From: Oscillospiraceae bacterium
GTDB lineage: Bacteria; Bacillota; Clostridia; Oscillospirales; Acutalibacteraceae
Direction: 5' to 3'
DNA: 64,000 nt
NCBI GenBank assembly: GCA_015066005.1
Contig: SVPF01000002.1
Span: forward strand, 36,923-100,922
Below, in pieces: positions 8,493-52,060 of the stretch (position 1 is its first letter; every line of letters starts with the position of its first letter). Made by a program: the position numbers and the translations under genes. Below the pieces are notes generated by a model, which saw only the letters and a program-made list of their open reading frames with translations, did no database searches and was not told the DNA's origin.

Positions 8493-8509
8493 AAAAAGGA
8501 GTGTATTTT

Positions 8510-9091
8510 ATGAGTTTTGTACCTTATGTTATTGAACAAACAAGTAGAGGAGAGCGTTCATACGACATATTTTCCCGTCTTTTAAACGACCGCATCATTA
8601 TGCTTAACGGCGAAGTTAACGATGCATCGGCGAGCGTTGTAATTGCTCAAATGCTTTATCTTGAAGGTCAGGACCCTGATAAAGACATTAACTTTTACAT
8701 TAACAGCCCCGGTGGCTCGGTTTCAGCCGGTATGGCTATTTATGACACAATGCAGTACATTAAGTGTGATGTAAGCACTATTTGTATGGGTATGGCCGCA
8801 AGCATGGGCGCATTTCTTTTATCTGCAGGTGCAAAGGGTAAGCGCTTGGCACTTCCCAACAGCGAAATTATGATTCATCAGCCTCTCGGCGGTGCAAAGG
8901 GTCAGGCAACCGAAATTTTAATTGCCGCAAAGCATATTGAGCGCACCCGTGCAAACTTAAACCGCATTTTGTCTGAAAATACAGGCAGAAGCCTTGAAGA
9001 AATTGAACGCGATACCGAACGCGACAACTTTATGACAGCTCAGGAAGCGCTTGAGTACGGTCTTGTTGATAAAGTAATTACTAAGAGGTAA
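8510..9091 (+). CDS. clpP: ATP-dependent Clp protease proteolytic subunit
   Basis: '[18 protein letters not shown]', catalytic Ser in 'AASMGA' and His in 'MIHQP'. I prefer the ATG at 8510 (MSFVPYVIE). Confidence 0.96.
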
Positions 9092-9097
9092 TAAATA

Positions 9098-10333
9098 ATG
9101 CCAAGTAAAGTTGACAATGAAATTCGCTGTTCCTTTTGCGGCAAAACACAGGACGAGGTAACCCGTCTTGTTGAAGGCCCCGGCGTTTACATTTGTGACA
9201 ATTGTATTGATTTTTGCGCTTCTCTTTTATTTGAGGATGAAGTGTCTGCAAATAAGAGCAAAAAACAAAAAAAGGAAAAGGAATTTGTTTTACCTAAGCC
9301 GCAGGAAATTAAGGCTAAGCTTGATGAATATGTAATCGGTCAGGACGAAGCTAAGAAAACCTTGTCGGTAGCGGTTTATAACCATTATAAGCGCATCTTC
9401 AAGAAGGATGAAAGCGGTGTTGAGCTTAACAAAAGTAATGTGTTAATGCTTGGCCCCACAGGTGTTGGTAAAACCCTTTTGGCGCAAACACTTGCTAAAT
9501 GCCTTGATGTGCCGATTGCAATAACCGATGCTACAACCTTAACCGAAGCGGGTTACGTTGGTGAAGATGTTGAAAATATTCTTCTCAGGCTTATTCAAGC
9601 GGCGGACTATGATATTGAAAAGGCCGAACGCGGTATAATTTACGTTGACGAAATTGACAAAATTGCAAGAAAAAGCGAAAATGCCTCCATTACCCGTGAC
9701 GTAAGCGGTGAGGGTGTTCAGCAAGCGCTTTTGAAAATTTTAGAGGGCACAGTTTCCAATGTTCCCCCTCAGGGTGGCAGAAAGCATCCTCAGCAGGAAT
9801 TTATTCAAATTGATACCACTAACATTTTGTTCATTTGCGCAGGCGCATTTGACGGTATTGAAAAGGTTATCGAACGCCGTATAGGCGGCAGCAGTCTTGG
9901 CTTTGGGGCCGATGTTAAGTCCCCAAAAAGTAAGGAAGCTGAGGCGCTCAGCATGGTGGCGACCCACCAAGACCTTGTAAAGTTTGGTATTATACCTGAG
10001 CTTGTCGGTCGTATGCCCGTTATTACAGCTTTAAAGGGTATGGATAAACAAACCCTTATTCGCATTATGACCGAACCGAAAAATTCCATTATTAAACAGT
10101 ATGAAGCACTTTTCAAAATGGACGGTGTTGACTTAATGTTTGATAAAGCGGCGCTTAATAAAATTGCTGAGCTTACAATCGAGCGTAAAACAGGCGCACG
10201 TGGTCTTCGTTCAATTATTGAGGGTGTTTTACAGCCCCTAATGTTCGAAACCCCGTCGGACAACACCATTAAAAAAATCGTTATCACCGAAGCTACCGTG
10301 CTAGGCGGCGAAGCGGAGATTATAAGAGCATAA
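9098..10333 (+). CDS. clpX: ATP-dependent Clp protease ATP-binding subunit ClpX
   Basis: N-terminal C4 zinc finger (CSFCGK...CDNC) and Walker A 'GPTGVGKT'. It follows clpP in the expected synteny. Confidence 0.97.
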
Positions 10334-14035: not shown

Positions 14036-15118
14036 CTAAAATTCCTCCAAAATTTCGGTAATTATAGCGTTTGAAAGCAGCATACCGTTGTTTGTAAGTG
14101 AAAAGCGGCCGTTTTCTAAAATTCCTAAGCCGTTTTTGGCAAAAAGCCCGCATTTTTTTACTGCGGCGGTGGGTAATTTTTCAGTTTTAATACCATCCTT
14201 AAGGCGAAGGGCAAGCATTATTTGCTCACTTAAATCTCCACCCTCACCGTCGGGTGTGGGGGTAATGCCCTTAATAAACGCTTTAAGGTCACGTGGGTAG
14301 TAAAAACGCTTACCCAAAAGGTAAGAATGTGCCGACGGGCCAAGCCCTAAATATTCTTCACATTTCCAATATTTTATATTGTGCTTACTTTCAAAATTTT
14401 CTTTACAAAAATTTGAAATTTCATAATGGCAAAAGCCTTTGTTTTCAAGGTATTCGCACATAAACAAATATTGGTCGCTGACAGCATCGTCATCGGGTAA
14501 ATTTAGGGTGTTGCAAATTTTGAAAAACTTAGTGTTTCGCTCAATTTTTAAAATATAAGCCGAAATATGCTCAGGGGCAAGGCTTGTTATAAAATCAAGG
14601 CTGTTTTTTAGGGTGTCACAGCTACTGTCGGGAAGCCCCAGCATTAAATCAAGCGAGATGTTGCCAAACCCTAGTTCTCTTGCAATTTTTACGGCTTTTT
14701 CGGTGTCGGCTACAGTATGTCGTCTTCCAAGAACCGACAGTTCAGTATCGTTACCGCTTTGAGCACCTATAGAAATTCGGTTTACACCTGCCTTTTTGGC
14801 ATTGCTCAGAATTTCAAAAATATTATCGGCAGGGTTTACTTCAAGGGTAATTTCGGCATTATCTAAAACGTTAAAGCTTTCATAAACTGCGTTTAGCAAA
14901 GGTACTAAACGGTAATTTAAAAGTGACGGTGTACCGCCACCAAGGTAAATAGTATCAATGGGACGGTTTATTTTGCCGCCCCATTGTTTTATTTCTCTTA
15001 TAAGTGCAGTTGTGTAACTGTCAATAAGCTCCTCATTAGTAAAAGCAGAATAAAAATCGCAATAAGCGCACTTGCCGTTACAAAAGGGAATATGTAGGTA
15101 TAAACCTAAATTAGTCAA
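14036..15118 (-). CDS. hemW: Radical SAM heme chaperone HemW (HemN-like)
   Basis: 'LYLHIPFCNGKCAYCDF' CxxxCxxC motif. I prefer the TTG at 15118 (MTNLGLYLHIPFC), which gives an 8-nt overlap with the pduL stop. The track's start at 15193 lies deep inside pduL. Confidence 0.85.
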   Translation of the reverse strand: MTNLGLYLHIPFCNGKCAYCDFYSAFTNEELIDSYTTALIREIKQWGGKINRPIDTIYLGGGTPSLLNYRLVPLLNAVYESFNVLDNAEITLEVNPADNIFEILSNAKKAGVNRISIGAQSGNDTELSVLGRRHTVADTEKAVKIARELGFGNISLDLMLGLPDSSCDTLKNSLDFITSLAPEHISAYILKIERNTKFFKICNTLNLPDDDAVSDQYLFMCEYLENKGFCHYEISNFCKENFESKHNIKYWKCEEYLGLGPSAHSYLLGKRFYYPRDLKAFIKGITPTPDGEGGDLSEQIMLALRLKDGIKTEKLPTAAVKKCGLFAKNGLGILENGRFSLTNNGMLLSNAIITEILEEF

Positions 15119-15683
15119 GAATTTCACCCATTTGACCGCAACCAACCAAAGCAGCGTTTGCTTCGTCGGTGTCAATGTGCATTGCAAGAGCATAAGAAGG
15201 ACTTACACGTGCAACAACATCACCGAAAACAAGTGAACGGCCGTTGGTGTCAACCTTAACTGAAACAATTTGCTTATCGCTAATGCCGTATTTTTCAGCA
15301 TCGGCGGGGGTCATATGTATATGGCGCTTTGCAGCAATAACGCCCTGTGTAAGTTCTACTTCGCCCTTAGGACCAACAATTTTACAAGCACCGCTGCCTG
15401 CAACGTCGCCTGATTCACGAATGGGAGCAGTAACGCCGATAGCGCGTGCATCGGTTAAAGAAAGCTCAACCTGAGTGTCAGGACGAACGGGACCGAGGAT
15501 AGATGCCTTTAATGAAGATTTAGCACCAACAATGGTAACCTTTTCTTCACAAGCAAACTGACCTGGCTGTGAAAGGTCTTTTTTAGGGGTGAGCTGATAG
15601 CCTTCACCAAAAAGGATTTCCAAATCCTTTTGAGAAACGTGAACGTGACGGGCCGAAATTTCAACTAATACTTCTTTTGCCAT
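15111..15683 (-). CDS. pduL: Phosphate propanoyltransferase / PduL-type phosphotransacylase
   Basis: Duplicated PduL signature: 'EISARHVHVS' and 'AKRHIHMTPADA', 190 aa. Confidence 0.88.
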   Translation of the reverse strand: MAKEVLVEISARHVHVSQKDLEILFGEGYQLTPKKDLSQPGQFACEEKVTIVGAKSSLKASILGPVRPDTQVELSLTDARAIGVTAPIRESGDVAGSGACKIVGPKGEVELTQGVIAAKRHIHMTPADAEKYGISDKQIVSVKVDTNGRSLVFGDVVARVSPSYALAMHIDTDEANAALVGCGQMGEILD

Positions 15684-21293: not shown

Positions 21294-22352
21294 ATGATGT
21301 TATACACAAATGATATTACTAAAAAAGTTAAGGTTGGCAATATGTTTATCGGCGGCGGTGCGCCCGTAAGCGTGCAGTCAATGCTGTGCGCCGAAGCCCA
21401 CGATATTGAGGGTAATGTTGCGCAGGCTTTAAGGCTTCAGGCGGCCGGGTGTGACATTGTGCGTGTTACCGTGCCCGATAAGGAAGCTATTAAAACGGTT
21501 GAGGCGCTAAAAAACGCCATTAAAATTCCCTTGGTAGCGGATATACATTTTGATTATCGCTTAGCCATTGAAAGTGTTGCCGCAGGGGTTGACAAGGTGC
21601 GCATAAATCCGGGTAACATTGGCGGTGATGCCAATGTTAAAGCTGTGGCTGATTGCTGCAAGGCGGCAGGTGTGCCAATAAGAATCGGTGTAAATTCGGG
21701 TTCACTTGAAAAGGAAATACTTGCAAAATACGGCGGGGTAACCCCCGAAGCAATGGTTGAAAGCGGTCTTTATCACATTTCACTTTTAGAAAAGTTTGAT
21801 TTTGATGATATTGTACTGTCCTTAAAATCATCCGATACCTTTAAAATGTATAAGGCTTATGAATTGGCGGCCGAAAAGTGCCGTTACCCATTGCACCTTG
21901 GCGTTACCGAAGCAGGTACCGAAAATATGGGTGTTATAAAATCGGCGGCAGGTATTGGCGGACTATTGCTTCGCGGTATCGGTAATACCATTCGTATTTC
22001 CTTGACCGATGACCCTGTAAAAGAGGTTGAAGCAGGTATAAAGCTTTTAAAGGCAATAGGCATTAGAAATGACGGTATTAAGTTTGTTTCCTGCCCCACC
22101 TGCGGCAGAACACAAATTGATTTAATAAAAATTGCCGCTGACGCTGAAAAACGCCTTGCGAATGTAAATAAAAATATAACGGTTGCAATTATGGGCTGTG
22201 TTGTAAACGGTCCCGGTGAAGCATCTGCTGCAGATATCGGTATTGCGGGCGGAAAAGGCTGCGGTGTGCTTTTCAAAAAGGGTGAAATTATTTGCAAATT
22301 GCCTGAAGAAAAGCTGCTTGATGCTTTAATAGAAGAAATTGAAAAAATGTAA
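21294..22352 (+). CDS. ispG: 4-hydroxy-3-methylbut-2-en-1-yl diphosphate synthase
   Basis: 'VQSM', 'RINPGN' and the C-terminal Cys cluster 'SCPTCGRT ... GCVVNGPGE'. Confidence 0.95.
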   Translation: MMLYTNDITKKVKVGNMFIGGGAPVSVQSMLCAEAHDIEGNVAQALRLQAAGCDIVRVTVPDKEAIKTVEALKNAIKIPLVADIHFDYRLAIESVAAGVDKVRINPGNIGGDANVKAVADCCKAAGVPIRIGVNSGSLEKEILAKYGGVTPEAMVESGLYHISLLEKFDFDDIVLSLKSSDTFKMYKAYELAAEKCRYPLHLGVTEAGTENMGVIKSAAGIGGLLLRGIGNTIRISLTDDPVKEVEAGIKLLKAIGIRNDGIKFVSCPTCGRTQIDLIKIAADAEKRLANVNKNITVAIMGCVVNGPGEASAADIGIAGGKGCGVLFKKGEIICKLPEEKLLDALIEEIEKM

Positions 22353-22367
22353 ACGGAGTTGAAAAGG

Positions 22368-25300
22368 TTGGCTACCCCATTGTTTTGTGAAATATTCGGT
22401 GAATTTTTAAGTGAAGAATTACGCCAAAAATTTGGTGGCGCAATTCTTAAAAAATGTAAGCTTGATACCGAAAACAGAAGCCTTGCTGCAGGGCTTTATT
22501 GTGATACATATATTTCACGCACCGCTATGGGTGAAGTTACATCCGAACTTATAAAGCTTTTAAGGCTAGAAAAATGTGTAATTGAAACTGAATTTGCACC
22601 AACAGCCTTTTGTGTTGATGCAATTATAGATACTATTGATGTAATCCGTTTGAAAAATGCGGCGCTTAACGGGTACTTTAATGGGGCTGACTATAATTTA
22701 GACGGTGACGCCCTTACCATAACCTTAAAGCACGGCGGTTATAAAAAAATTGTTTCCACAAAATTTGAAGAACAGTTTATCCGTATGGTAAATAATACTT
22801 TTGCCAGGGAATGTGTTATTTGTTTTGACGGCCAGCTTGATGATGTTGAAATTGAAGTACCCGAAATTCAGGCGGCACCTCAGCCCCAAAGGGCCGAAAA
22901 AAAGGTGGAGGAAAAACCGCAAATCAAGTTTGAAAAGCGTCGCGAAAAGCCCGCAAACGGTGTGGTTTATCTTGATAATCCACAGCTTTTTTACGGCAGG
23001 CGCATTGATAACAATGTAAAGCAAATGATTGATATTTCACCCGACGATTCCTTTGTGTGCTGTTGGGGCGAGGTTTTCGGTTACGAAACCCGTAAAATCA
23101 ATACTAAGCGCGGCGAAGCGGTCATTGTTAATTTTTCAATTTCGGACTATACAAATTCAATCAGCGCTTCAATGTTTATGGACCCCAAAAGAATGGGGGA
23201 TATTTCCAACCTTAAAAACGGTAATTTTGTTTTAGTTAACGGTAATTACGAATTTGATAATTATAAAAAAGAGCATATTATAAAGCCGACTGCCTTGGCG
23301 CTTTTACAGCCCTATTTTGAAATGGATGAATATGAGGGAGAAAAGCGAATAGAGCTTCATTGCCATACCAATATGTCGGACAAGGATGCCGTTTGTCCCG
23401 CTGAGGATTTAATAAATCAGGCTTACAAATGGGGCCATAAGGCAATTGCCATTACCGACCACGGTGTTGTGCAGGCATACCCTGCGGCCGCAGGCGCGGT
23501 TAAGAAAATCCGCAAAAACGGCGGCGACTTTAAGGTAATTTACGGTGTTGAGGGTTATTTTGTTGATGATGTTAATAATGACATCACAAACCTTGCTCCC
23601 AAGCAAATTAAGCGTTACCACCAAATTATTTTGGTTAAAAATGCGGTTGGCCTTAAAAACCTATACAAATTAGTGTCCGACGCGCATATAAACAATTTTA
23701 AGGGCAGACCCTTAACCCTTCGCAGTAAGTTAGATGAGCTGCGCGAGGGCTTAATTGTAGGCTCGGCCTGTGAAGCGGGCGAGCTTTTTCAGGCAATTTT
23801 CCGCGGGGAACCCCACGAAGAGCTTTTAAGAATTGCAAGCTATTACGATTATCTTGAAATTCAGCCCCTCGGCAATAACGATTTTATGGTAAGAAAATCG
23901 ACCGAGCCTGATGAAAAGAACAAAAAGGGCGAGGTTATTCCAAACCCTTACCGCCACGTTACAAGCGTTGAAATGCTTAAGGCTTATAACCGTAAAATTG
24001 TTGAAATTGCAGATGAATTGGGAAAACCTGTTGTGGCAACGGGCGACGTTCACTTTTTAAGAAAAAGTGATGAAATTATCCGTAAAATTTTGCTTGCGGG
24101 TCAAAATTATGACGACTTTGACCACCAAGCGCCCCTTTATCTTAAAACCACCCAAGAAATGCTTGACGATTTTGCATATTTCGGTGACAGGGCAAAGGAA
24201 TTTGTTATTGATAACCCCGCCAAAATTGCCGAAATGGTAAGCGGTGATATTATTCCTGTTCCCGAAGAGAGCCATCCCCCTGTTATTGAGGGGTCGGATG
24301 ATATGCTTCGCGAAATTTGTTGGGCAAATGCCCGTAAAAAGTATGGCGAAGTGGTGCCCGAGGTGGTTGTTAAGCGCCTTGAAAAAGAGCTTAACGCAAT
24401 TATTAATAACGGCTTCTCTATAATGTATATTTCGGCGCAAAAGCTTGTGGCTTACAGTGAAGAAAACGGCTATTTGGTTGGCTCGCGTGGATCTGTAGGC
24501 TCATCCTTTGTTGCTACAATGGCCGGTATATCCGAGGTTAACCCCCTGCCGCCGCATTATGTTTGCCCCGAATGTCAGTACAGCGAATTTTTCTTAAAGG
24601 GTGAAGTGGGCTCGGGCTTTGACCTGCCTGAAAAAAAGTGCCCCCATTGTGATAAAATGCTGGTGCGCGACGGTCACGATATTCCTTTTGAAACCTTCTT
24701 AGGCTTCAAGGGTGATAAGGTGCCCGATATCGACCTTAACTTTTCGGATGAATTCCAAACTGAAGTTCAGCGCTATACCGAAGAGCTTTTCGGCAGCGAA
24801 AACGTGTTTAAGGCGGGTACAATTTCTACCATTGCCGAAAAAACCGCTTACGGCTTTGCAAAGGCCTATGCTGAAAAGAAGGGTATTACCCTTTCCAATG
24901 CTGAGCTTGACCGTTTGGCAAAGCTGGTGGAAAAAAGTAAAATTAAGGCAACAACAGGTCAGCACCCTGCAGGTATGATTGTCGTGCCGAGAAACGAAAC
25001 AATTTACGACTTTTGCCCCATTCAGTACCCTGCAAACAAGCCTGAATCGGGTGTTACTACAACCCATTTTGACTTCCATTCCATTCACGATACAATTTTG
25101 AAGCTTGACGAGCTTGGCCACGTTGTTCCTACTACATATAAATATTTAGAGGAATACACAGGCATTCCCGTTAACAACATTTCAATGAGCGACCCCAAGG
25201 TTTACAGTCTTTTCACTTCAACCGAAGCATTGGGTGTCACCCCTGAGGAAATTGAATCCAATACAGGCACCTACTGCATACCCGAATTCGGCACAGCCTT

Positions 25301-26174
25301 TGTTCGCGGAATGCTTGAGGACTGCCGCCCCAAAAATTTTGCCGACCTACTTCAAATTTCAGGTCTTTCCCACGGTACAGACGTTTACCTGGGTAACGCG
25401 AAGGATTTAATCGACAACGGCACCTGCACCATTTCTGAGGTTATCGGTACACGTGATAATATTATGGTGTACTTAATACATCAGGGTATGGAGGAAGGCC
25501 GAGCCTTCAAAATTACCGAAACGGTGCGTAAGGGCCTTATTGCCAAGGGTGCCGTACCTAAAGAGGTATGGGACGAAATGGCCGAGGATATGCGCAAGGT
25601 TAATGTGCCTGAATGGTATATTGATTCCTGCCGCAAAATTAAGTATATGTTCCCCAAAGCTCACGCCGCGGCGTATGTTATCGGTGCGCTAAGGCTTGCG
25701 TGGTACAAGGTTTACCGCCCGCTTGAATTTTACTGTGCATATTTTACCGCTCGCCCTGAAGATGTTGACGTTCCCACAATTATGGGCGGTAAGGAAGCGG
25801 TGCGCCGTTATCTGCGTGATATTAAGGCTAAGGGCAAGGATGCTACCCAAAAAGAGCTTGATGTTTACGAAAATATGCTTATATTTAATGAAATGTTCTC
25901 CCGCGGGTTAGAGGTTCTGCCAATTGATATTAACAAGTCCCATGCTATGAAATATGTGCCGGAGGATGGGAAAATGCGTTTGCCCTTCGGTGCGCTTTCG
26001 GGCGTTGGCGAAAAGGCAGCCTACGCAATTTATGAAGCGGCGCAGGCAGGTAACTATGTTTCAAAGGAAGATTTTCAGCTTGAAGCAGGCGTTTCAAAAA
26101 CAATTATACAAAATTTAAGCGACTTGGGCGCCTTTAGCGATTTACCTGACACGAACCAATTATCAATGTTTTGA
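22368..26174 (+). CDS. polC: PolC-type DNA polymerase III alpha subunit lacking the usual inserted 3'-5' exonuclease domain
   Basis: An OB fold lies before the PHP domain ('IELHCHTNMSDKDA', 'AITDHG'). The PolC zinc module 'YVCPECQYSEF..CPHCDKML', 'KVPDIDLNFS' and 'KAHAAAYV' are all present. The TTG at 22368 lies 9 nt after GGAG, whereas the track's TTG at 22359 abuts the RBS. See the finding. Confidence 0.9.
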   Translation: MATPLFCEIFGEFLSEELRQKFGGAILKKCKLDTENRSLAAGLYCDTYISRTAMGEVTSELIKLLRLEKCVIETEFAPTAFCVDAIIDTIDVIRLKNAALNGYFNGADYNLDGDALTITLKHGGYKKIVSTKFEEQFIRMVNNTFARECVICFDGQLDDVEIEVPEIQAAPQPQRAEKKVEEKPQIKFEKRREKPANGVVYLDNPQLFYGRRIDNNVKQMIDISPDDSFVCCWGEVFGYETRKINTKRGEAVIVNFSISDYTNSISASMFMDPKRMGDISNLKNGNFVLVNGNYEFDNYKKEHIIKPTALALLQPYFEMDEYEGEKRIELHCHTNMSDKDAVCPAEDLINQAYKWGHKAIAITDHGVVQAYPAAAGAVKKIRKNGGDFKVIYGVEGYFVDDVNNDITNLAPKQIKRYHQIILVKNAVGLKNLYKLVSDAHINNFKGRPLTLRSKLDELREGLIVGSACEAGELFQAIFRGEPHEELLRIASYYDYLEIQPLGNNDFMVRKSTEPDEKNKKGEVIPNPYRHVTSVEMLKAYNRKIVEIADELGKPVVATGDVHFLRKSDEIIRKILLAGQNYDDFDHQAPLYLKTTQEMLDDFAYFGDRAKEFVIDNPAKIAEMVSGDIIPVPEESHPPVIEGSDDMLREICWANARKKYGEVVPEVVVKRLEKELNAIINNGFSIMYISAQKLVAYSEENGYLVGSRGSVGSSFVATMAGISEVNPLPPHYVCPECQYSEFFLKGEVGSGFDLPEKKCPHCDKMLVRDGHDIPFETFLGFKGDKVPDIDLNFSDEFQTEVQRYTEELFGSENVFKAGTISTIAEKTAYGFAKAYAEKKGITLSNAELDRLAKLVEKSKIKATTGQHPAGMIVVPRNETIYDFCPIQYPANKPESGVTTTHFDFHSIHDTILKLDELGHVVPTTYKYLEEYTGIPVNNISMSDPKVYSLFTSTEALGVTPEEIESNTGTYCIPEFGTAFVRGMLEDCRPKNFADLLQISGLSHGTDVYLGNAKDLIDNGTCTISEVIGTRDNIMVYLIHQGMEEGRAFKITETVRKGLIAKGAVPKEVWDEMAEDMRKVNVPEWYIDSCRKIKYMFPKAHAAAYVIGALRLAWYKVYRPLEFYCAYFTARPEDVDVPTIMGGKEAVRRYLRDIKAKGKDATQKELDVYENMLIFNEMFSRGLEVLPIDINKSHAMKYVPEDGKMRLPFGALSGVGEKAAYAIYEAAQAGNYVSKEDFQLEAGVSKTIIQNLSDLGAFSDLPDTNQLSMF

Positions 26175-29682: not shown

Positions 29683-29868
29683 AAATTACCTCTTTTTTAA
29701 AAATGTGAATAAATTGTAAATTCATAATAACATATATCGACATATTTCGCAATATTTTTTTAAAATCTTAAAAATTAAAATTACTTGTTAAATTAATATA
29801 TATATGATATACTTTATGTATATGAATTTTTTGTTAAAATCTTTCCATAATAACTATGGGTGATTTTA

Positions 29869-30543
29869 ATGAGTAACGACAATAATTTAAAAAATGAAAA
29901 AAGCGAAGAAATAAAGGAATTTGGGTCGGTTATATCTGCAGGCGGCAAGCATAAAATTTACTGCCTTACCATTATTGGCGAAATTGAAGGCCACACTATT
30001 TTGGCCGAAAACAGCAAGTCCACTAAGTACGAGCATATAATACCTCAGCTTGTGGCGGTTGAAGAATCGGACGAAATCGAAGGTCTTTTGGTTATACTTA
30101 ACACTATTGGCGGTGATGTTGAAGCAGGCCTTGCTATTGCCGAGCTTATTTCGGGTATGAAAAAGCCCACAGCCTCGCTTGTGTTGGGTGGCGGGCATTC
30201 AATTGGTGTGCCGTTGGCGGTATCTGCCAAGCGGTCATACATTGCGCCGTCAGCTACAATGACTGTGCACCCTGTCAGAAGCAACGGTCTTTTTATAGGT
30301 GTGCCGCAAATGCTTAACCACTTTCAGCGTATGCAGGACCGCATAACCGATTTTGTCTGCCGCAATTCCAAAATTCAAAGTGAAGCCTTTACAAGCCTTA
30401 TGATGAATACCGGAGAAATGGTGACCGATGTCGGCAGTGTTTTGTCGGGTGAAAGGGCGGTCGAGGTTGGCCTTATTGATGAGGTTGGCAATTTGTCTGA
30501 GGTTATTTCGGGTCTTTATAATTTAATTGAAAACAAAGGGTGA
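29869..30543 (+). CDS. tepA: ClpP-fold serine protease, TepA/SDH family
   Basis: 'IIGEIEGH', 'KYEHIIPQL' and 'LNTIGGDVEAGLAIAE', with Ser in 'GGGHSIGV' and His in 'MTVHPV'. It lies directly upstream of ftsK/spoIIIE, as in Bacillus. Confidence 0.7.
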   Translation: MSNDNNLKNEKSEEIKEFGSVISAGGKHKIYCLTIIGEIEGHTILAENSKSTKYEHIIPQLVAVEESDEIEGLLVILNTIGGDVEAGLAIAELISGMKKPTASLVLGGGHSIGVPLAVSAKRSYIAPSATMTVHPVRSNGLFIGVPQMLNHFQRMQDRITDFVCRNSKIQSEAFTSLMMNTGEMVTDVGSVLSGERAVEVGLIDEVGNLSEVISGLYNLIENKG

Positions 30544-43308: not shown

Positions 43309-44220
43309 ATGGCTTTTACTGCTAAAGACGTACAGGCTTTAAGAGAAAAAACCGGTTGCGGTATGATGGACTGTAAAAAGGCCCTCGTAGAATGCGACGG
43401 TAATATGGATGCCGCAGTTGACTATTTGCGCGAAAAGGGTCTTGCTTCTCAAGCTAAGAAGGCAGACCGTATCGCTGCTGAAGGTACTGTTGCTGTTTAC
43501 ACAGCAAACGGCGTAGGTGCTATTGTTGAACTCAACAGCGAAACCGACTTCGTTGCTAACGGCGACGGCTTTAAGGCATTGGCTGCTGAGGTTGCTGAAG
43601 TTGTAGCTACTCAGAACCCCGCTGATATGGACGCTCTTCTCGCTGCAGAAAAAGACGGTATGACCGTTGAGGCAAAGGTTCAGGAATTGTTCCTTGCTAT
43701 TCGTGAAAACATTAAGGTTCGTCGTTTTGACCGCTTTGAAGGTAAGGTTGTTTCTTACGTTCACGCAGGTGGTAAGATTGGTGTTCTTGTTAACTTCGAA
43801 ACCGAACTTGCTGCTGATAACGAAGGCCTTGTTACTATGGGTAAAAACATTGCAATGCAAATCGCTGCAATGAACCCTGCTTATCTTGATCAGGCATCAG
43901 TTCCTGCTTCTGTTATCGAAAAGGAAAAGGAAATCCTCGTTGCTCAAATGAAGGAAGATCCTAAAATGGCTAACAAGCCCGATGCAGTTCTCGGTAAAAT
44001 TGTTGAAGGTAAAATCGGCAAATACTATAAGGAAAACTGCCTTGTTGAACAGGCATTCGTTATGGATGGTGATCTTACCGTTGGCAAGTACATTGCTAAC
44101 ACCGCTAAGGAGCTTGGCGCTGAAGTTAAGCTTGCTGCTTATGTTCGCTTTGAAAAGGGCGAAGGTATTGAAAAGCGCGTTGACGACTTCGCTGCTGAAG
44201 TTGCTGCAATGGCTAAATAA
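43309..44220 (+). CDS. tsf: Elongation factor Ts
   Basis: 'LREKTG.GMMDCKKAL' UBA-like N-terminus. The ATG at 43309 follows GGAGG. Confidence 0.96.
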   Translation: MAFTAKDVQALREKTGCGMMDCKKALVECDGNMDAAVDYLREKGLASQAKKADRIAAEGTVAVYTANGVGAIVELNSETDFVANGDGFKALAAEVAEVVATQNPADMDALLAAEKDGMTVEAKVQELFLAIRENIKVRRFDRFEGKVVSYVHAGGKIGVLVNFETELAADNEGLVTMGKNIAMQIAAMNPAYLDQASVPASVIEKEKEILVAQMKEDPKMANKPDAVLGKIVEGKIGKYYKENCLVEQAFVMDGDLTVGKYIANTAKELGAEVKLAAYVRFEKGEGIEKRVDDFAAEVAAMAK

Positions 44221-44233
44221 TTGCTGTAAATTT

Positions 44234-44276
44234 AAATCCCCAAGATTTCGGTCTTGGGGATTTTTGTTTTTTAAAA
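44234..44276 (+). terminator. Rho-independent terminator after tsf
   Basis: AAATCCCCAAGA-tttcg-GTCTTGGGGATTT followed by TTGTTTTTT. Confidence 0.75.
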
Positions 44277-44397
44277 AACAAAAATTATAAAATTAAGAGA
44301 GTTTTTTAAAATTCATACGTCTAATATATAAAAGTTAAAACATTGTAAATTGTTTTTCGAAATTTTTATACTATAATTTAAATGAGGCGGTGGTTTT

Positions 44398-45012
44398 ATG
44401 AAAAAAATAATTTTATTAATCTTGACGGTAATTTTCACATTTGGCACAGTTGGATGTGCTACTAACAAAGAAACCACAAATAATGCTGCAAAAGAGGCAT
44501 TTTCCTCTTTTTTGTCAGGGGACACAACACTTTTGGGTGCACAAGTGGAGGAAAAGGGTATTCCTGATTTTCAAGATGATATGTTGGAATATGAATATAC
44601 TTATTTAGATGTAAATGAAGACGGTGTAGTAGAAATGCTTGTTCAACTTCAGGATGACCCTTGCGGTTATAATGCGGTGTTTCACTTTGACGGCAAGCAA
44701 ATAATTTGTTGGCAAAGTGATTCGGTAGAAGGGGCTTGCCGTGATTATCCGCTAAAGGACGGAACAATGGTGCGCCAATACGATTATTCGGGAACACGAA
44801 GCTATACGCTTTTCCGTTATAATTCTGAGGGTGAAAAGGTCGATATTTCCAAAGTGTTTGCAAGGGATGAATTGATATATTCTAGCGATACGTCAAAATG
44901 TCCTTATTATGAAGTTGACGGGACGGAAGTCAGCAAGGACGAATTTGACAAAAAACATAAATTATTAATTGAGGAACGTATGCTTAAGCGAGATGCTTGG
45001 AAAGCAATATAA
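44398..45012 (+). CDS. Hypothetical lipoprotein
   Basis: Signal peptide with the lipobox 'FGTVGC'. I recognise no family. Confidence 0.7.
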   Translation: MKKIILLILTVIFTFGTVGCATNKETTNNAAKEAFSSFLSGDTTLLGAQVEEKGIPDFQDDMLEYEYTYLDVNEDGVVEMLVQLQDDPCGYNAVFHFDGKQIICWQSDSVEGACRDYPLKDGTMVRQYDYSGTRSYTLFRYNSEGEKVDISKVFARDELIYSSDTSKCPYYEVDGTEVSKDEFDKKHKLLIEERMLKRDAWKAI

Positions 45013-45044
45013 ATTTATAAAATTCTTAAAAATAGGATGGTTTT

Positions 45045-45782
45045 ATGAGTAACACAACAATAAAATGCGAAAACTGCGGCGCAATTTGCAACGTAAAGGA
45101 CGGTTATTGTAAAAACTGTTGGAAAAAGCTTGGCGGTGAAACCGAACAAGCTGATTTCATTATTGATGGTATAGGTCAAACCGAATGGGAAGATTATATA
45201 GATAAAAATGCGAAGCGATACGTTGACGTATATAAAAACAACAACGGTAAAAAATGGTTTTTACATATAAATTTTGCGGCGTTATTTTTGGGGCTTAACT
45301 GGGTTTTGTACCGTAAAATGTATAAGGTTGCAGTAATAGGCTTTATTGTCACGTCTTTAATTACGGTGGCGCTTTCGGTTTTGTTTTTGTTACCCCATAC
45401 CGAAGAAATGAGAATTTTAAACCAAGATATTGCACCGTATAAGGAATATATTAAAGGTGGCGGTCAAACCATTATGCTTGATGCGGATGGCAGACCCTAT
45501 TCGCCCGAAATAGTTCAAAAGGGCGCCATGGCTGAAAATAAGCTTGCCGAAATAGAAGCCAAGGCTCAATTTAAAACCATTATAATAGTTCCTTTTACCT
45601 GTGTTTTTTGGGGACTTTTCGGCGATGCAATTTATAAAAGGCATATTATAAAAAACATTAAAAACAAAAACGGCGGCGCTTCAATTGGGGCGGTAATTTG
45701 CGGTAGAATGCTGCTTGGCTTGGTAGAATGGCTGGTTATGGGTGCGTTAGTGTCGCTTTTGGTTATGCTTTTGTTGGTTTAA
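45045..45782 (+). CDS. Zinc-ribbon plus DUF2628-like membrane protein
   Basis: N-terminal 'CENCGA...CKNC' zinc ribbon, then the 'NFAALFLGLNWVLYRKMY' TM region typical of DUF2628. Confidence 0.65.
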   Translation: MSNTTIKCENCGAICNVKDGYCKNCWKKLGGETEQADFIIDGIGQTEWEDYIDKNAKRYVDVYKNNNGKKWFLHINFAALFLGLNWVLYRKMYKVAVIGFIVTSLITVALSVLFLLPHTEEMRILNQDIAPYKEYIKGGGQTIMLDADGRPYSPEIVQKGAMAENKLAEIEAKAQFKTIIIVPFTCVFWGLFGDAIYKRHIIKNIKNKNGGASIGAVICGRMLLGLVEWLVMGALVSLLVMLLLV

Positions 45783-45864
45783 TGGGTGTAAAATGAATAA
45801 ATAGCTTGTATGGGACGATGCTTACGAGGGGCTTGAAACGAGGTATAATTTGAAATACAAAGAA

Positions 45865-45900
45865 AAAACGGTAGATGCCAAAAAAGGCTTCTACCGTTTT
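45865..45900. terminator. Bidirectional terminator-like hairpin between the DUF2628 gene and sufB/D
   Basis: AACGGTAGA-(14 nt)-TCTACCGTT followed by TTGGTTTT. Confidence 0.55.
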
Positions 45901-45911
45901 GGTTTTGCATA

Positions 45912-46829
45912 TTATTTCAAAAATCCGTTTACAATTTGTTCCTCGGCTTCGGCTTCTGAAAGGCCTAAGGTCATAAGCTTAATAAGCTGTTCGCCTGCAA
46001 TTTTACCAATGGCCGCTTCGTGAATAAGCGCCGCATCAATATGGTTTGCGGTAATTTGCGGCAGGGCGGAAACGTGTGCATCATCCATAATAATGGCATC
46101 ACATTCGGTGTGACCGCTGCAAATGTTATTACCGTTTATGCGGGATACAAAAAGCTGGCTTGATTTATCCTTTGCAACCGAACGGGAAATGACGTTAGCG
46201 CTGCTGTTTTCACCGTTCATATCAACTGTAAAGTCGGTTTCGGCATACTGACTGCCGTGTGTCATAAGCTTTTCCTTAACAATAAGGGTTGCATTGTCGG
46301 CCAAAACAGCTTTGGTTATACGCTTGGTGGAATCAATACCCTTAATTTGTGTAGTTTCCATTTCCATATAACCGCCGTCAGCAATATTTATTACGGTGGT
46401 GGGGTTCATATTTTTGCCGCCCTCGCCGTCACCTTCGCCAACATGCTTTTCAACGTATTTTACCTTGGCGTTTTTGCCAACAAAAAAGGTGTGTATGCCG
46501 TCGTGGCGGGACTCCTCGCTTCCGCAGTTGTGAATACCGCAGCCTGCAACAATTTCAACATCGCAGTCATCCCCAATAATAAAGTCGTTATAAACCATTT
46601 CGGTTAAACCGCTTTCGCTTATAATTACGGGAATGTGAATTTTTTCGCCAACGGTGTTCGGTTTAATAATAATTTCAATACCCGAAACGCCTGCTTTTTC
46701 GCGAATGTCAACGTTTTCGGTAACGTGACGGGAAGAAAGCGCACCGTTTGCACGAATGTTAAACGCGCCTGCCGGTGTGCCGTCAATATCGGCTATCATT
46801 TTTAAAAGCTCAAGCTCTGTATTATTCAC
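45912..46829 (-). CDS. SufB/SufD family Fe-S cluster assembly protein (short form)
   Basis: Beta-helix C-terminal region, 'HEAAIGKI..EQL.KLM..GLSE.EAE..IV.GF'. Confidence 0.85.
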   Translation of the reverse strand: MNNTELELLKMIADIDGTPAGAFNIRANGALSSRHVTENVDIREKAGVSGIEIIIKPNTVGEKIHIPVIISESGLTEMVYNDFIIGDDCDVEIVAGCGIHNCGSEESRHDGIHTFFVGKNAKVKYVEKHVGEGDGEGGKNMNPTTVINIADGGYMEMETTQIKGIDSTKRITKAVLADNATLIVKEKLMTHGSQYAETDFTVDMNGENSSANVISRSVAKDKSSQLFVSRINGNNICSGHTECDAIIMDDAHVSALPQITANHIDAALIHEAAIGKIAGEQLIKLMTLGLSEAEAEEQIVNGFLK

Positions 46830-48841: not shown

Positions 48842-50340
48842 TATTTCACGCTTTCTATAAACTTCATAAAGGCCTTTTGACCCTTCTCGTCGCGCTTATA
48901 AACGCCTGCGTCTTCAAGCACCTTTGAGAAAACAAGGCCAATTTCTGCCTTAATAATACCGTCAATATTATCGGCATTTATATCATTATATTTTGCCTTA
49001 ATTTCTTCAGCCCATTCAGCGTGTTTTGAAAGTGCTTCGTCGTTTGTAATGTCACGTCCCTCTAAAATGGCGGTTTGAAGTCCTGCCATTTCTTGCTTTA
49101 AGCGGCCGGGAAGTACCGCAAGGCCCATAACCTCAATAAGACCGATGTTTTCCTTTTTAATGTGGTGATATTCCTGATGGGGATGGTAAACACCTAAGGG
49201 GAATTCCTCGGTGGTGATGTTGTTACGAAGAACAATATCAAGCTCAAAATCTTCACCGCGTCTGCGGGCAATAGGTGTGACAGCATTGTGGGGCTCGCCA
49301 TCAGTTTCTGCAAAAATGAAAGCATCCTCATCGGTATAGCTTTCCCAAGCGGTTAAAATTTTACCGCCAAGCTCAATTACACGCTCGGGGTTTGCGCCTG
49401 TAATACGTATAACCGACATAGGCCATTTTACAATACCTGTTTTAAGGTCTTCAAAGCCTTCAAAGGTGATTTCCTTTTCGATGGGGGCCTTTGTCATAGC
49501 AAAGGTGTAGTGACCGCCCTGATAATGCTCGTGCGAAAGGATAGAGCCGCCAACAATGGGAAGACCTGCATTCGAGCCAATAAAGTAATGGGGGAAGACA
49601 GTAACAAATTCAATAATTTTGCGAAGGGTGGTAATATCAACCTTCATCGGAATATGCTCGCCGTTATAAACAATGCAATGCTCGTTGTAGTAAACGTAGG
49701 GTGAATATTGCAAAAACCATTTATCACCGTCAAGTGTAATGGGAATAATGCGGTGGTTTTGACGTGCGGGGAAGTTAATACGGCCCGCATAGCCTTCACA
49801 TTCCTTGCAAAGCGCGCACTTGGGGTAGCCCGACTGCGGCGCATTTTTAGCCGCCATAATAGATTTCAAATCCTTTTCAGGCTTTGAAAGGTTAACCGTA
49901 ATATCCATTTGGCCGTATTCGGTGTCGGCAAGCCACTTAAGGTCCTTTGCTACACGGTAGCGGCGTATGTAGTCACTATCACAGCTTAAATTATAGTAAT
50001 AATCGGTAGCGGCTTCGGGGGATTCCTTATATAAAGCATTAAATTTTGCAATAACCTCGCTGGGTCTTGGCATTAAAGCCGACATAAGCTTAGTATCAAA
50101 AAGGTCGCGTTCGGTAATGTTGTCATCAATTAAGCCTTTTTCAACCGCAAAATCAAGAAGCTCTTTTAGGGTTTCTTCCAAATTTACATCCTCAAAAGCC
50201 TCATCGCATTCAAAGCTGTCAAGCTTTAAAATCTCTAAAATACGGTTGGTTACAAAAATTTCATCCTCTTTTGCAAAAAGGTTTTTGGCAAGACCGTAGC
50301 ATACTAATTTTTTAATACTTTTGTTAATCACAAAAATCAT
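48841..50340 (-). CDS. galT: Galactose-1-phosphate uridylyltransferase (type 2, Firmicute-type)
   Basis: About 499 aa and full length against long-form GalT. The true start may be the GTG at 50331, which is better spaced from AGGGAG. Confidence 0.9.
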   Translation of the reverse strand: MIFVINKSIKKLVCYGLAKNLFAKEDEIFVTNRILEILKLDSFECDEAFEDVNLEETLKELLDFAVEKGLIDDNITERDLFDTKLMSALMPRPSEVIAKFNALYKESPEAATDYYYNLSCDSDYIRRYRVAKDLKWLADTEYGQMDITVNLSKPEKDLKSIMAAKNAPQSGYPKCALCKECEGYAGRINFPARQNHRIIPITLDGDKWFLQYSPYVYYNEHCIVYNGEHIPMKVDITTLRKIIEFVTVFPHYFIGSNAGLPIVGGSILSHEHYQGGHYTFAMTKAPIEKEITFEGFEDLKTGIVKWPMSVIRITGANPERVIELGGKILTAWESYTDEDAFIFAETDGEPHNAVTPIARRRGEDFELDIVLRNNITTEEFPLGVYHPHQEYHHIKKENIGLIEVMGLAVLPGRLKQEMAGLQTAILEGRDITNDEALSKHAEWAEEIKAKYNDINADNIDGIIKAEIGLVFSKVLEDAGVYKRDEKGQKAFMKFIESVK

Positions 50341-50356
50341 CTCCCTTTAACATAAA

Positions 50357-50386
50357 ATTATACTATATTTGACACATAATTGTCAA
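50357..50386 (-). promoter_or_regulatory. Sigma-A-type promoter of the galT operon, with a palindrome over the -35
   Basis: The minus strand reads TTGACA, 18-nt spacer, TATAAT. TTGACA-attatg-TGTCAA is a perfect 6+6 inverted repeat (50369-50386). Confidence 0.45.
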
Positions 50387-50490
50387 TGTAATAAAGATAA
50401 AAAGATATAATTTGTGTGGACTGCTTATTACCGTTTTTGTTATGCCGTAAAAATATATTATATTTCACAGCAAGTAAATTGTTTAATTGA

Positions 50491-50519
50491 TTGACAAACC
50501 AATTCTACTAAAATATAAT
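50491..50519 (+). promoter_or_regulatory. Sigma-A-type promoter upstream of the MBOAT cluster
   Basis: TTGACA (50491-50496), 17-nt spacer, TATAAT (50514-50519). Confidence 0.5.
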
Positions 50520-50653
50520 ATACTCAAATTTTACATAAACGCTTTAATTATTAACAGATATTCGCAAAAATATCGCATTTGTGTGATATGCGATGTATGG
50601 TATAATTACTGTGAAAGAGAATATATCAAAAAGCTTGGGCAAGGGGGACAATT

Positions 50654-52060
50654 ATGGTATTTTCATCAATTGAATTTTTATACCTTTATTTACCGTTAGC
50701 CTCGTTTATTTATTTTATAATTCCCGCCAAATATTTAAGTCTTCGCAACCTTGCTTTATTGGTGTTAAGTCTTGTTTTTTACGGTTGGGGCGAGCCCGTT
50801 TATATTTTTATAATGTTCTTTTCAATTGCGGTGGATTATATTTGCGGCTATTTGGTTGCCAAAAACCGTGAAGCAAATCCTAAAAAAGCAAAAATCGCAA
50901 TGATTGCAAGCGTGGTATTGAATTTAAGCGTTTTGGGCTTTTTTAAATATTTTGATTTTATAATTGAAAATTTGGCGCTTATTCCAATTTTTTCATCCTT
51001 AAAACCGCTTGGAATAGCTTTACCGATAGGTATTTCGTTTTATACCTTTCAAACTATGTCTTACACGCTTGATATTTATTTAGGTAAAGCAAAGGTGCAA
51101 AAAAACATCTTTTCCTTTGGGTCGTATGTTACTATGTTTCCACAGCTTATTGCGGGGCCAATAGTAAGGTATGGCGATGTTGATGAACAGCTTCGGTATA
51201 GAAAGCATAGCTTTGAAAAGGCATCAAGCGGAATACTTCGTTTTATTTGCGGCTTGGCTAAAAAGGTTTTGCTTGCTAACACAGCGGGCGCGGTCTACAG
51301 TCAGTTAGCCTTGTCGGCTAGTGAAACACCAAGTATGCTGTCAAGCTGGCTTGCGCTTATATTCTTTTCCTTCCAAATTTATTTTGACTTTTCGGGCTAT
51401 TCCGATATGGCAATCGGTCTCGGTCGTATTATGGGGTTTGAATTTAATGAAAATTTTGATTACCCGTATATCTCAAAAAGTATTACAGAATTTTGGCGGC
51501 GTTGGCATATAAGCCTTTCCTCGTGGTTTAAGGAATATGTTTACATACCTTTAGGCGGCAACCGAAAGGGGTTGGGTCGCACCGTAATAAACCTTTTAAT
51601 AGTTTGGTTTTTAACGGGGCTTTGGCACGGCGCTTCGTGGAATTTTATTATTTGGGGACTTTACTTCTTCCTGCTGCTTGTAATTGAAAAGTTCTTCCTT
51701 TTAAAAGTTCTTCAAAAGCTTCCTAAATTTATATCACACATATATTCACTTTTGTTTGTAGTGTTCGGCTGGTATATTTTTATTGCTTGCGATTTAACGG
51801 CACCCTTTGAATTTTTAAAAGCAATGTTCACAGCGCCCATAGCTTCCGACTTATCGTTGTACGAGCTGTTGCGAAACATAGCTTTCATAGTGGTTTTGTG
51901 TGTTGCCGCAACACCCTTACCTAATAAAGTTTATTCAAAAATAAAGGACAAGGCAATAGCCAAGGTTATAATTTTTATTGCGGCAATTACACTTTTGCTT
52001 ATTTGCACGGCTTATATAGTCGATTCATCCTATAATCCGTTTTTATATTTTCGTTTTTAA
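50654..52060 (+). CDS. MBOAT family O-acyltransferase (AlgI/DltB/PatA-like)
   Basis: Polytopic, 468 aa, with the conserved 'FWRRWHISLSSW' catalytic-His region. Confidence 0.92.
   Translation: MVFSSIEFLYLYLPLASFIYFIIPAKYLSLRNLALLVLSLVFYGWGEPVYIFIMFFSIAVDYICGYLVAKNREANPKKAKIAMIASVVLNLSVLGFFKYFDFIIENLALIPIFSSLKPLGIALPIGISFYTFQTMSYTLDIYLGKAKVQKNIFSFGSYVTMFPQLIAGPIVRYGDVDEQLRYRKHSFEKASSGILRFICGLAKKVLLANTAGAVYSQLALSASETPSMLSSWLALIFFSFQIYFDFSGYSDMAIGLGRIMGFEFNENFDYPYISKSITEFWRRWHISLSSWFKEYVYIPLGGNRKGLGRTVINLLIVWFLTGLWHGASWNFIIWGLYFFLLLVIEKFFLLKVLQKLPKFISHIYSLLFVVFGWYIFIACDLTAPFEFLKAMFTAPIASDLSLYELLRNIAFIVVLCVAATPLPNKVYSKIKDKAIAKVIIFIAAITLLLICTAYIVDSSYNPFLYFRF

Follow-up and report, generated by a model that had tools for sequence, protein, structure and literature searches.

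We analyzed a 64,000-nucleotide stretch of DNA from an Oscillospiraceae bacterium (assembly GCA_015066005.1, contig SVPF01000002.1, positions 36,923 to 100,922), hereinafter the window, with a focus on the gene for the replicative DNA polymerase PolC, which is encoded on the forward strand at 22359..26174. The product of this gene is almost certainly a functional PolC that naturally lacks the exonuclease (Exo) domain and belongs to a known subclass of such proteins: the DEDDh exonuclease of about 190-210 amino acids (aa), which is usually inserted in PolC's PHP domain, is replaced by a 16-residue loop. Below we describe the gene and its domains, the site of the missing exonuclease, the conservation of this architecture, and the possible sources of proofreading in such polymerases.

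The polC gene and the domain architecture of its product

The polC open reading frame (ORF) is unbroken and spans 1271 aa counted from the first TTG codon. The TAA stop codon of the preceding gene, ispG (22350-22352), is followed by two in-frame TTG codons, at 22359 and 22368, and a suitably spaced GGAG is present only for the second, which lies 9 nt after it and yields a protein of 1268 aa. Because of this spacing, and because the five closest database homologs are also 1268 aa long, the sequence context favors TTG 22368 as the start of polC, and the mechanically delimited ORF probably begins three codons too early. All residue numbers given here are nevertheless counted from TTG 22359. The features of the gene, all on the forward strand, are as follows.

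22359..26174, +, polC, exo-less variant (ORF list, start context, NCBIfam equivalogs and match to PDB 3f2b)
22368..22958, +, N-terminal domain region, about aa 4-200, boundaries approximate, conserved in the 121-sequence alignment
23013..23318, +, OB fold N-terminal to PHP (PolC-type order), about aa 219-320; the alignment with Geobacillus kaustophilus PolC begins at aa 219
23346..23561, +, N-terminal part of PHP, aa 330-401, ligands H334, H336, D343, H368 and E398
23562..23618, +, Exo junction, VDD (aa 402-404) followed by the 16-residue loop VNNDITNLAPKQIKRY (aa 405-420)
23619..24278, +, C-terminal part of PHP, aa 421-640, ligands H421, C471, D563 and H565
23895..23948, +, lineage-specific insertion of about 18 aa in PHP, about aa 513-530, KSTEPDEKNKKGEVIPNP...
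24291..25598, +, polymerase core (palm, thumb and fingers), aa 645-1080, Pfam DNA_pol3_alpha (1.4e-55) and finger domain (3.9e-22)
24564..24650, +, PolC zinc module CPEC...CPHC, C736, C739, C761 and C764
25905..26147, +, tandem helix-hairpin-helix (HhH), aa 1183-1263, Pfam HHH_6 (2.1e-13)
26157..26171, +, beta-clamp-binding motif QLSMF, C-terminal aa 1267-1271

A first-pass annotation of this DNA, made from the sequence alone, had proposed an uninterrupted PolC gene, and both parts of that proposal hold. The protein scores well above the cut-offs of the two curated NCBIfam PolC equivalog models (NF001688, 1388 bits against a cut-off of 873; TIGR01405, 1260 bits against 1043), and its scores with the NCBIfam DnaE models all fall far under the respective cut-offs. 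The order of domains is that of the PolC group, namely OB (about aa 219-320), PHP (330-640), Pol3 (645-1080), HhH (1183-1263) and the terminal QLSMF motif. The active site is also of the PolC type and comprises PDIDLNF (D790, D792, N794) together with D917; Asn in place of the third clustered Asp of DnaE is a PolC hallmark (PMC3919608). The catalytic D790, D792 and D917 are invariant in all 121 aligned sequences, that is, the window PolC and its 120 closest database homologs (90%-identity clusters), as are the four cysteines of the zinc module that the first-pass annotation had pointed out. The QLSMF motif is close to the clamp-binding consensus QL[S/D]LF (PMC3919608), and the homologs end in QISMF, QMSMF, QLSMF or QMSLF.

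The Pfam matches of the window PolC comprise PHP (332-494), DNA_pol3_alpha, the finger domain, HHH_6 and a weak OB match (tRNA_anti-codon, aa 247-303, E=0.046). The placement of an OB fold ahead of PHP, another element of the first-pass annotation, is supported by this match as well as by the alignment with PDB 3f2b from aa 219 onward, and an AlphaFold2 (AF2) model renders the region as beta strands with a predicted local distance difference test (pLDDT) score of 79-87. This model was run on aa 220-1271 with a shallow alignment of 38 sequences; its overall confidence is poor (pLDDT 61.6, predicted TM-score 0.47), and only the half that contains OB and PHP, with pLDDT 75-95, is usable. For the N-terminal region, precomputed Pfam matches to PF11490 and PF14480, which we take to be the PolC N-terminal subdomain families, are found on the homologs P0004 and P0108, and not on the other homologs of the query.

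A short loop in place of the exonuclease

The hallmark of a typical PolC, a DEDDh exonuclease inserted in PHP, is missing from the window protein, and because of this absence we place it in the exo-less subclass. Positions 23562-23625 translate to VDDVNNDITNLAPKQIKRYHQ (aa 402-422), and the exo-bearing relatives P0128 and P0123 have about 205 aa between ...YFVDD and H-x-I-L-V-K-N, where the query has 16. The absence of the domain and the length of the linker, both noted in the first-pass annotation, are borne out by Pfam, by NCBIfam and by alignments with solved structures. No RNase_T/DEDDh domain is matched by Pfam in the window PolC even at E<=1. The match to NF001688 falls into two stretches, the second of which maps query residues 413-1271 to profile positions 608-1444, so that the profile positions up to about 607, the site of Exo, lie outside this second stretch. 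The G. kaustophilus PolC structure 3f2b, from which the Exo domain is missing (figure legend, PMC3919608), aligns contiguously over aa 219-1271 (E=0, 1032 bits), and at the junction its chain has the sequence ...RRLGSGSGPFH..., essentially where the natural linker of the query falls. The match with the full-length PolC 9qpc is broken in two, with the second part beginning at chain residue 633 and the first only weak beyond about residue 430. The 9qpc sequence in this alignment is the same as the N-terminal sequence of Enterococcus faecium PolC in the 2014 supplement (PMC3919608).

Direct searches for an overlooked exonuclease gave the same result. As the first-pass annotation had reported, regular expressions for Exo I (D.E..G) and Exo III (H.A..D) match nowhere in the window PolC; a lone N..FD at aa 296, considered as an Exo II motif, was rejected as a chance match that sits in the OB region. 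We also built a custom PolC-Exo hidden Markov model (HMM) from 98 Exo inserts. In a positive control, this HMM recovered 102 of 132 sequences (131 PolC representatives and the query); it detected nothing in the six frames of the 64-kb window (best E=0.72), nor in 13 related loci up to 6 kb from polC. Thus, none of the profile searches, with Pfam, NCBIfam or the custom HMM, uncovered an exonuclease domain that the earlier reading had missed.

The linker is conserved throughout the clade, with the pattern D-I-x-x-L-x-x-K-Q-I, and in the AF2 model it lies between two strands as a loop that includes a short helical turn (pLDDT about 70-78). The stretch from E398 to H421 aligns without gaps, and at the same length, with the PHP loop of Thermus aquaticus DnaE1; therefore, excision of the exonuclease appears to restore an uninterrupted, DnaE1-like PHP domain. 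In Mycobacterium tuberculosis DnaE1, the corresponding loop lines a groove that is continuous with the PHP exonuclease site, and it is in this loop that the DEDD domain of PolC is inserted (PMC5636811).

An intact PHP metal site

The nine metal ligands of PHP form a complete HHDHEHCDH nonad (H334, H336, D343, H368, E398, H421, C471, D563 and H565), which agrees with the first-pass annotation that the ligand motifs are intact and matches the pattern HHDHEH[C/H]DH of an M. tuberculosis DnaE1-like proofreader. Eight of these ligands are retained in 121 of the 121 sequences, and D563 is kept in 119 of the 121 homologs. At ligand position 8, the window PolC has GDVH, in contrast to GNVH in G. kaustophilus PolC, an enzyme reported to be devoid of exonuclease activity in its PHP domain owing to a single altered ligand (PMC5636811). 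The HHDHEHCDH combination was scored as an 'active' PHP in a 2026 survey (PMC12926913).

The PHP segment that holds the insertion of about 18 aa is 48 aa long in the query and P0121 and 45 aa in P0132. Almost all other PolC representatives, whether or not they carry Exo, have about 30 aa in this segment. The idea that this insertion compensates for the loss of Exo was rejected, given that it is limited to the clade of the query and missing from most other exo-less PolCs.

Conservation of the exo-less architecture

The missing domain could be an artefact, with the assembly collapsed at this site, or a sign of decay, with the gene being a degenerating paralog and a full-length polC lying at another site in the genome. 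The view here is confined to the 64-kb window, which leaves a little room for such explanations; the comparative evidence, however, renders them highly improbable. The 120 closest homologs, which come from NCBI, ENA, JGI and Logan assemblies, are 73-98% identical to the query and 1267-1281 aa long, and share its architecture: PF00929 is carried by 0 of the 120. The same architecture is found in 13 loci from distinct species represented by metagenome-assembled genomes (MAGs), all with the gene order dxr-rseP-ispG-polC and 11 of the 13 also with a downstream M23 peptidase. The related orthologs thus share the deletion, a point on which the first-pass annotation had asked for a check, and assembly collapse, of which it had warned, is excluded by this recurrence.

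The possibility of a degenerate paralog, also raised there, is disfavored by the locus, by selection and by the invariant catalytic residues. Upstream of polC, the window has the order pyrH-frr-uppS-cdsA-dxr-rseP-ispG, which, as in B. subtilis, is the canonical Firmicute neighborhood of polC; the window gene is thus the orthologous polC and occupies its canonical locus. Pairwise ratios of nonsynonymous to synonymous substitution rates (dN/dS) against 12 orthologs are 0.037-0.099, and there are no internal stops. The window gene is unbroken, lies in conserved synteny and is strongly constrained by purifying selection, the linker sequence itself is conserved, and the 2014 survey saw two polC copies in one clostridial genome only once (PMC3919608).

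The 13 loci are mostly ruminant-gut bins labeled Acutalibacteraceae, Oscillospiraceae or Clostridia, and the closest loci and proteins carry the names of Acutalibacteraceae, Oscillospiraceae, Ruminococcaceae or Clostridia MAGs. Spo0A and SpoIVA are encoded in the window. The host accordingly falls within the range of the exo-less subclass, Clostridia or Negativicutes, and with all 120 of the closest 90%-identity clusters lacking the exonuclease, the variant is abundant among ruminant-gut Clostridia and is stably kept there.

Loss and decay of the exonuclease across PolCs

An exhaustive HMMER search with aa 220-1271 against 50%-identity cluster representatives was used to place the window protein in a wider context. 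From the best 150 matches, the 131 of at least 1100 aa were retained and, together with the query, form a set of 132 sequences, which divide as follows with respect to the Exo site and the PHP nonad.

Exo absent (at most 38 aa at the site): 23 sequences including the query; PHP nonad intact in 22, altered in 1 (P0217)
Unrecognizable insert: 7 sequences; PHP nonad intact in 7, altered in 0
Exo present: 102 sequences; PHP nonad intact in 62, altered in 40

Six of the unrecognizable inserts (in P0142, P0143, P0170, P0171, P0213 and P0224) are 140-290 aa long and display only vestigial similarity to the Exo HMM, with no Pfam RNase_T match in any of them. Catalytic residues are replaced, for example, FIILDIIHH in P0213 and FVAVSLKTTG in P0171 compared with the consensus fVvfDiETTG. 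Judging from these replacements, the six inserts look like vestigial, dead Exo domains, all in proteins with an intact PHP nonad. The Pfam result covers these six; the seventh insert, in P0235, is 61 aa long.

On neighbor-joining trees of the shared PHP-polymerase core, which are crude and poorly resolved at the deep nodes, the exo-less state requires 14 parsimony steps (range 10-17 over 40 bootstraps). This distribution suggests that decay and loss of Exo recur in lineages with an intact PHP. The organism names among the exo-less cluster members that were looked up are Thermoclostridium sp., 'Clostridia bacterium', 'Clostridiales bacterium' and 'Bacillota bacterium'. The only exo-less representative with a degenerate PHP (HRSLENADQ) is P0217, a protein of 1178 aa, which may be the extra Thermotogae-type PolC copy of Timinskas et al.

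Relationship to known replicases

By its domain content, the window PolC is a member of the exo-less subclass catalogued by Timinskas et al. (2014, NAR 42:1393, PMC3919608), and its kind is already known. In that survey, 6% of PolCs lack the Exo insertion, and 16% of those in genomes with PolC and DnaE1 do so; hence, the rarity of this arrangement among Firmicutes that the first-pass annotation implied was overstated. Exo-less PolCs were confined to Clostridia and Negativicutes, bar one extra PolC copy in Thermotogae, and Clostridia and Negativicutes that have PolC always pair it with DnaE1 (PMC3919608). The metal sites of PolC PHP domains were found to be highly conserved, and a cultured carrier, Acidaminococcus fermentans, has an exo-less PolC of 1191 aa with the order NTD (N-terminal domain)+OB+PHP+Pol3+HhH and the HHDHEHCDH nonad (PMC3919608 and its supplement). 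The window protein resembles these PolCs in its NTD-OB-PHP-Pol3-HhH architecture without Exo, all nine PHP ligands, the clamp motif and the clostridial host, and differs from them in its lineage, uncultured ruminant-gut MAGs of the Acutalibacteraceae type, and in the PHP insertion, which most PolCs lack. The window thus adds breadth to a variant already in the literature, with cultured carriers such as Acidaminococcus, in the form of a new, well-populated lineage, and not a new concept.

Canonical PolCs (those of B. subtilis, G. kaustophilus and E. faecium; 3f2b and 9qpc) share with the window protein a highly similar polymerase core, scores above the curated PolC cut-offs, the zinc module, the DxD and D catalytic residues with the PolC-type Asn, the HhH region and the clamp motif, but carry the DEDDh exonuclease between the Glu and His ligands of PHP. 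The resemblance to M. tuberculosis DnaE1 and Thermus Pol III alpha lies in the uninterrupted PHP domain with nine ligands and in a loop as long as that of T. aquaticus DnaE1. Unlike the window PolC, those enzymes are of the DnaE1 type, with a C-terminal OB fold and no zinc module, and similarity of DnaE1-type replicases to the window protein is limited to PHP and the palm (E of about 1e-11 to 1e-24). Their exonuclease activity has been demonstrated, whereas that of the window PolC is only predicted.

Other features of the window

A canonical clpP-clpX pair is located at 8501-10333, and a second, divergent ORF for a ClpP/NfeD-like serine protease (CLP_protease, 6.9e-22) is found at 29860-30543, just upstream of ftsK. 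Two ORFs at 44398-45782 encode proteins of 204 aa, with no Pfam match, and 245 aa, with a weak DUF2628 match; the surrounding region (44001-46000) has the second-lowest G+C content in the window (0.371, the lowest being 0.352 at 50001-52000) and the highest GC skew (0.224). On the reverse strand, within 14036-15683, the mechanically delimited ORFs for a radical-SAM/HemN-like protein (14036-15193) and the PTAC phosphate propanoyltransferase (15111-15683) share 83 nt; the downstream gene probably has a later true start. No RNA genes were detected in the 64-kb window by Rfam and tRNA scans.

Proofreading in exo-less PolCs

In our view, this protein is almost certainly the orthologous, functional PolC replicative polymerase of its organism, from which the DEDDh domain has been cleanly excised in a lineage of uncultured ruminant-gut Clostridia of the Acutalibacteraceae/Oscillospiraceae type. 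The 16-residue loop left behind would yield an uninterrupted, DnaE1-like PHP fold, and the trinuclear metal center of PHP would then perform 3'-5' proofreading in cis on the DNA made by PolC. The cell would also possess a DnaE1 with an active PHP of its own, as do all PolC-bearing Clostridia surveyed so far; such a pairing is expected from PMC3919608 and PMC12926913. By analogy with the DnaE1-type enzymes, we modestly favor the PHP center as the proofreader of the window PolC, and the explanation as a whole, a functional exo-less PolC together with this mechanism, appears reasonably probable to us. Proofreading by PHP is established for M. tuberculosis DnaE1 and has been reported for Thermus Pol III alpha (PMC5636811), and Clostridia usually have three 'active' proofreaders, namely the PHP of PolC, the PHP of DnaE1 and the DnaQ domain of PolC (PMC12926913). 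In C. thermocellum, a species with PolC and DnaE1, the PHP-ligand mutation C669Y in PolC alone results in a 30-fold mutator phenotype; therefore, PolC makes a substantial part of the genome in that organism. The affected residue is equivalent to C471 of the window PolC. No dnaE gene lies within the 64-kb window itself. Ethanoligenens harbinense belongs to the same order as the window organism. It is listed as PC+E1 in the 2014 supplement (PMC3919608).

Several observations weigh against proofreading by PHP. As P0217 indicates, it is possible for a PolC to lack an obvious proofreader in cis. Phylogeny confounds the association between PHP and Exo states: the PolCs with a degenerate PHP occupy a separate region of the PolC tree, and the exo-less ones fall in the region in which PHP is intact whether Exo is present or not. 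The AF2 model, at its overall pLDDT of 61.6, offers no usable geometry for the path of the primer between the polymerase and PHP sites, and the view here of a trans-acting DEDDh partner, DnaE1 or a second polC spans 64 kb of the genome.

One alternative is that proofreading is provided in trans by a separate DnaQ-like DEDDh exonuclease that associates with the exo-less PolC or works at the fork, with PHP being only structural or a docking site. The alpha-epsilon pair of E. coli, in which epsilon edits for DnaE, is a precedent; bacterial proteomes contain on average more than 3 stand-alone DnaQ homologs, and the Exo of B. subtilis PolC can proofread for DnaE3 in trans (PMC12926913); clostridial DnaE1s, moreover, keep a conserved putative epsilon-binding surface (PMC3919608). 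We nevertheless regard this arrangement as unlikely. No DEDDh domain was detected in the 64-kb window, including Pfam scans of 47 window ORFs, nor up to 6 kb from polC at the 13 related loci, and Clostridia were not assigned any stand-alone replicative DnaQ in the 2026 survey (PMC12926913). A docking role, furthermore, does not require strict conservation of nine ligands, such as the 119-121 of 121 seen here; the PHP of E. coli binds epsilon despite alterations in five of the nine (PMC5636811).

Under the other alternative, PolC goes unproofread and has a restricted or specialized role, and a DnaE1 with an active PHP is the bulk replicase, so that the loss of Exo is cheap. Timinskas et al. raised the speculation that the main replicase may be DnaE1 in organisms with exo-less PolCs, which, except for the Thermotogae copy, occur only in lineages with PolC and DnaE1, and some Clostridia have DnaE1 alone (PMC3919608). 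This scenario, too, seems doubtful to us in light of the strong purifying selection (dN/dS 0.04-0.10), the invariant active site with a near-consensus clamp motif, and the retention of the canonical locus. If fidelity were unimportant, the PHP site would have been free to decay, as in DnaE3, but it is invariant, and the mutator effect of the C. thermocellum PolC mutation points in the same direction as the PHP-proofreading reading that we favor.

Extending the latter beyond the window, we tentatively suggest, at somewhat less than even chances, that the DEDDh domain may have been lost recurrently in clostridial-type PolCs, and that PHP may be the primary and sufficient PolC proofreader across Clostridia with PolC and DnaE1. 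Recurrent loss of Exo in combination with a perfect PHP site, if real, would imply precisely such a role of the PHP center, and the window protein would then be a natural PHP-only PolC. Exo-less PolCs provide a natural test case for PHP as a real proofreader in PolC, and they bear on the division of labor in the PolC+DnaE1 replisome of Clostridia, both questions that were already flagged in 2014.

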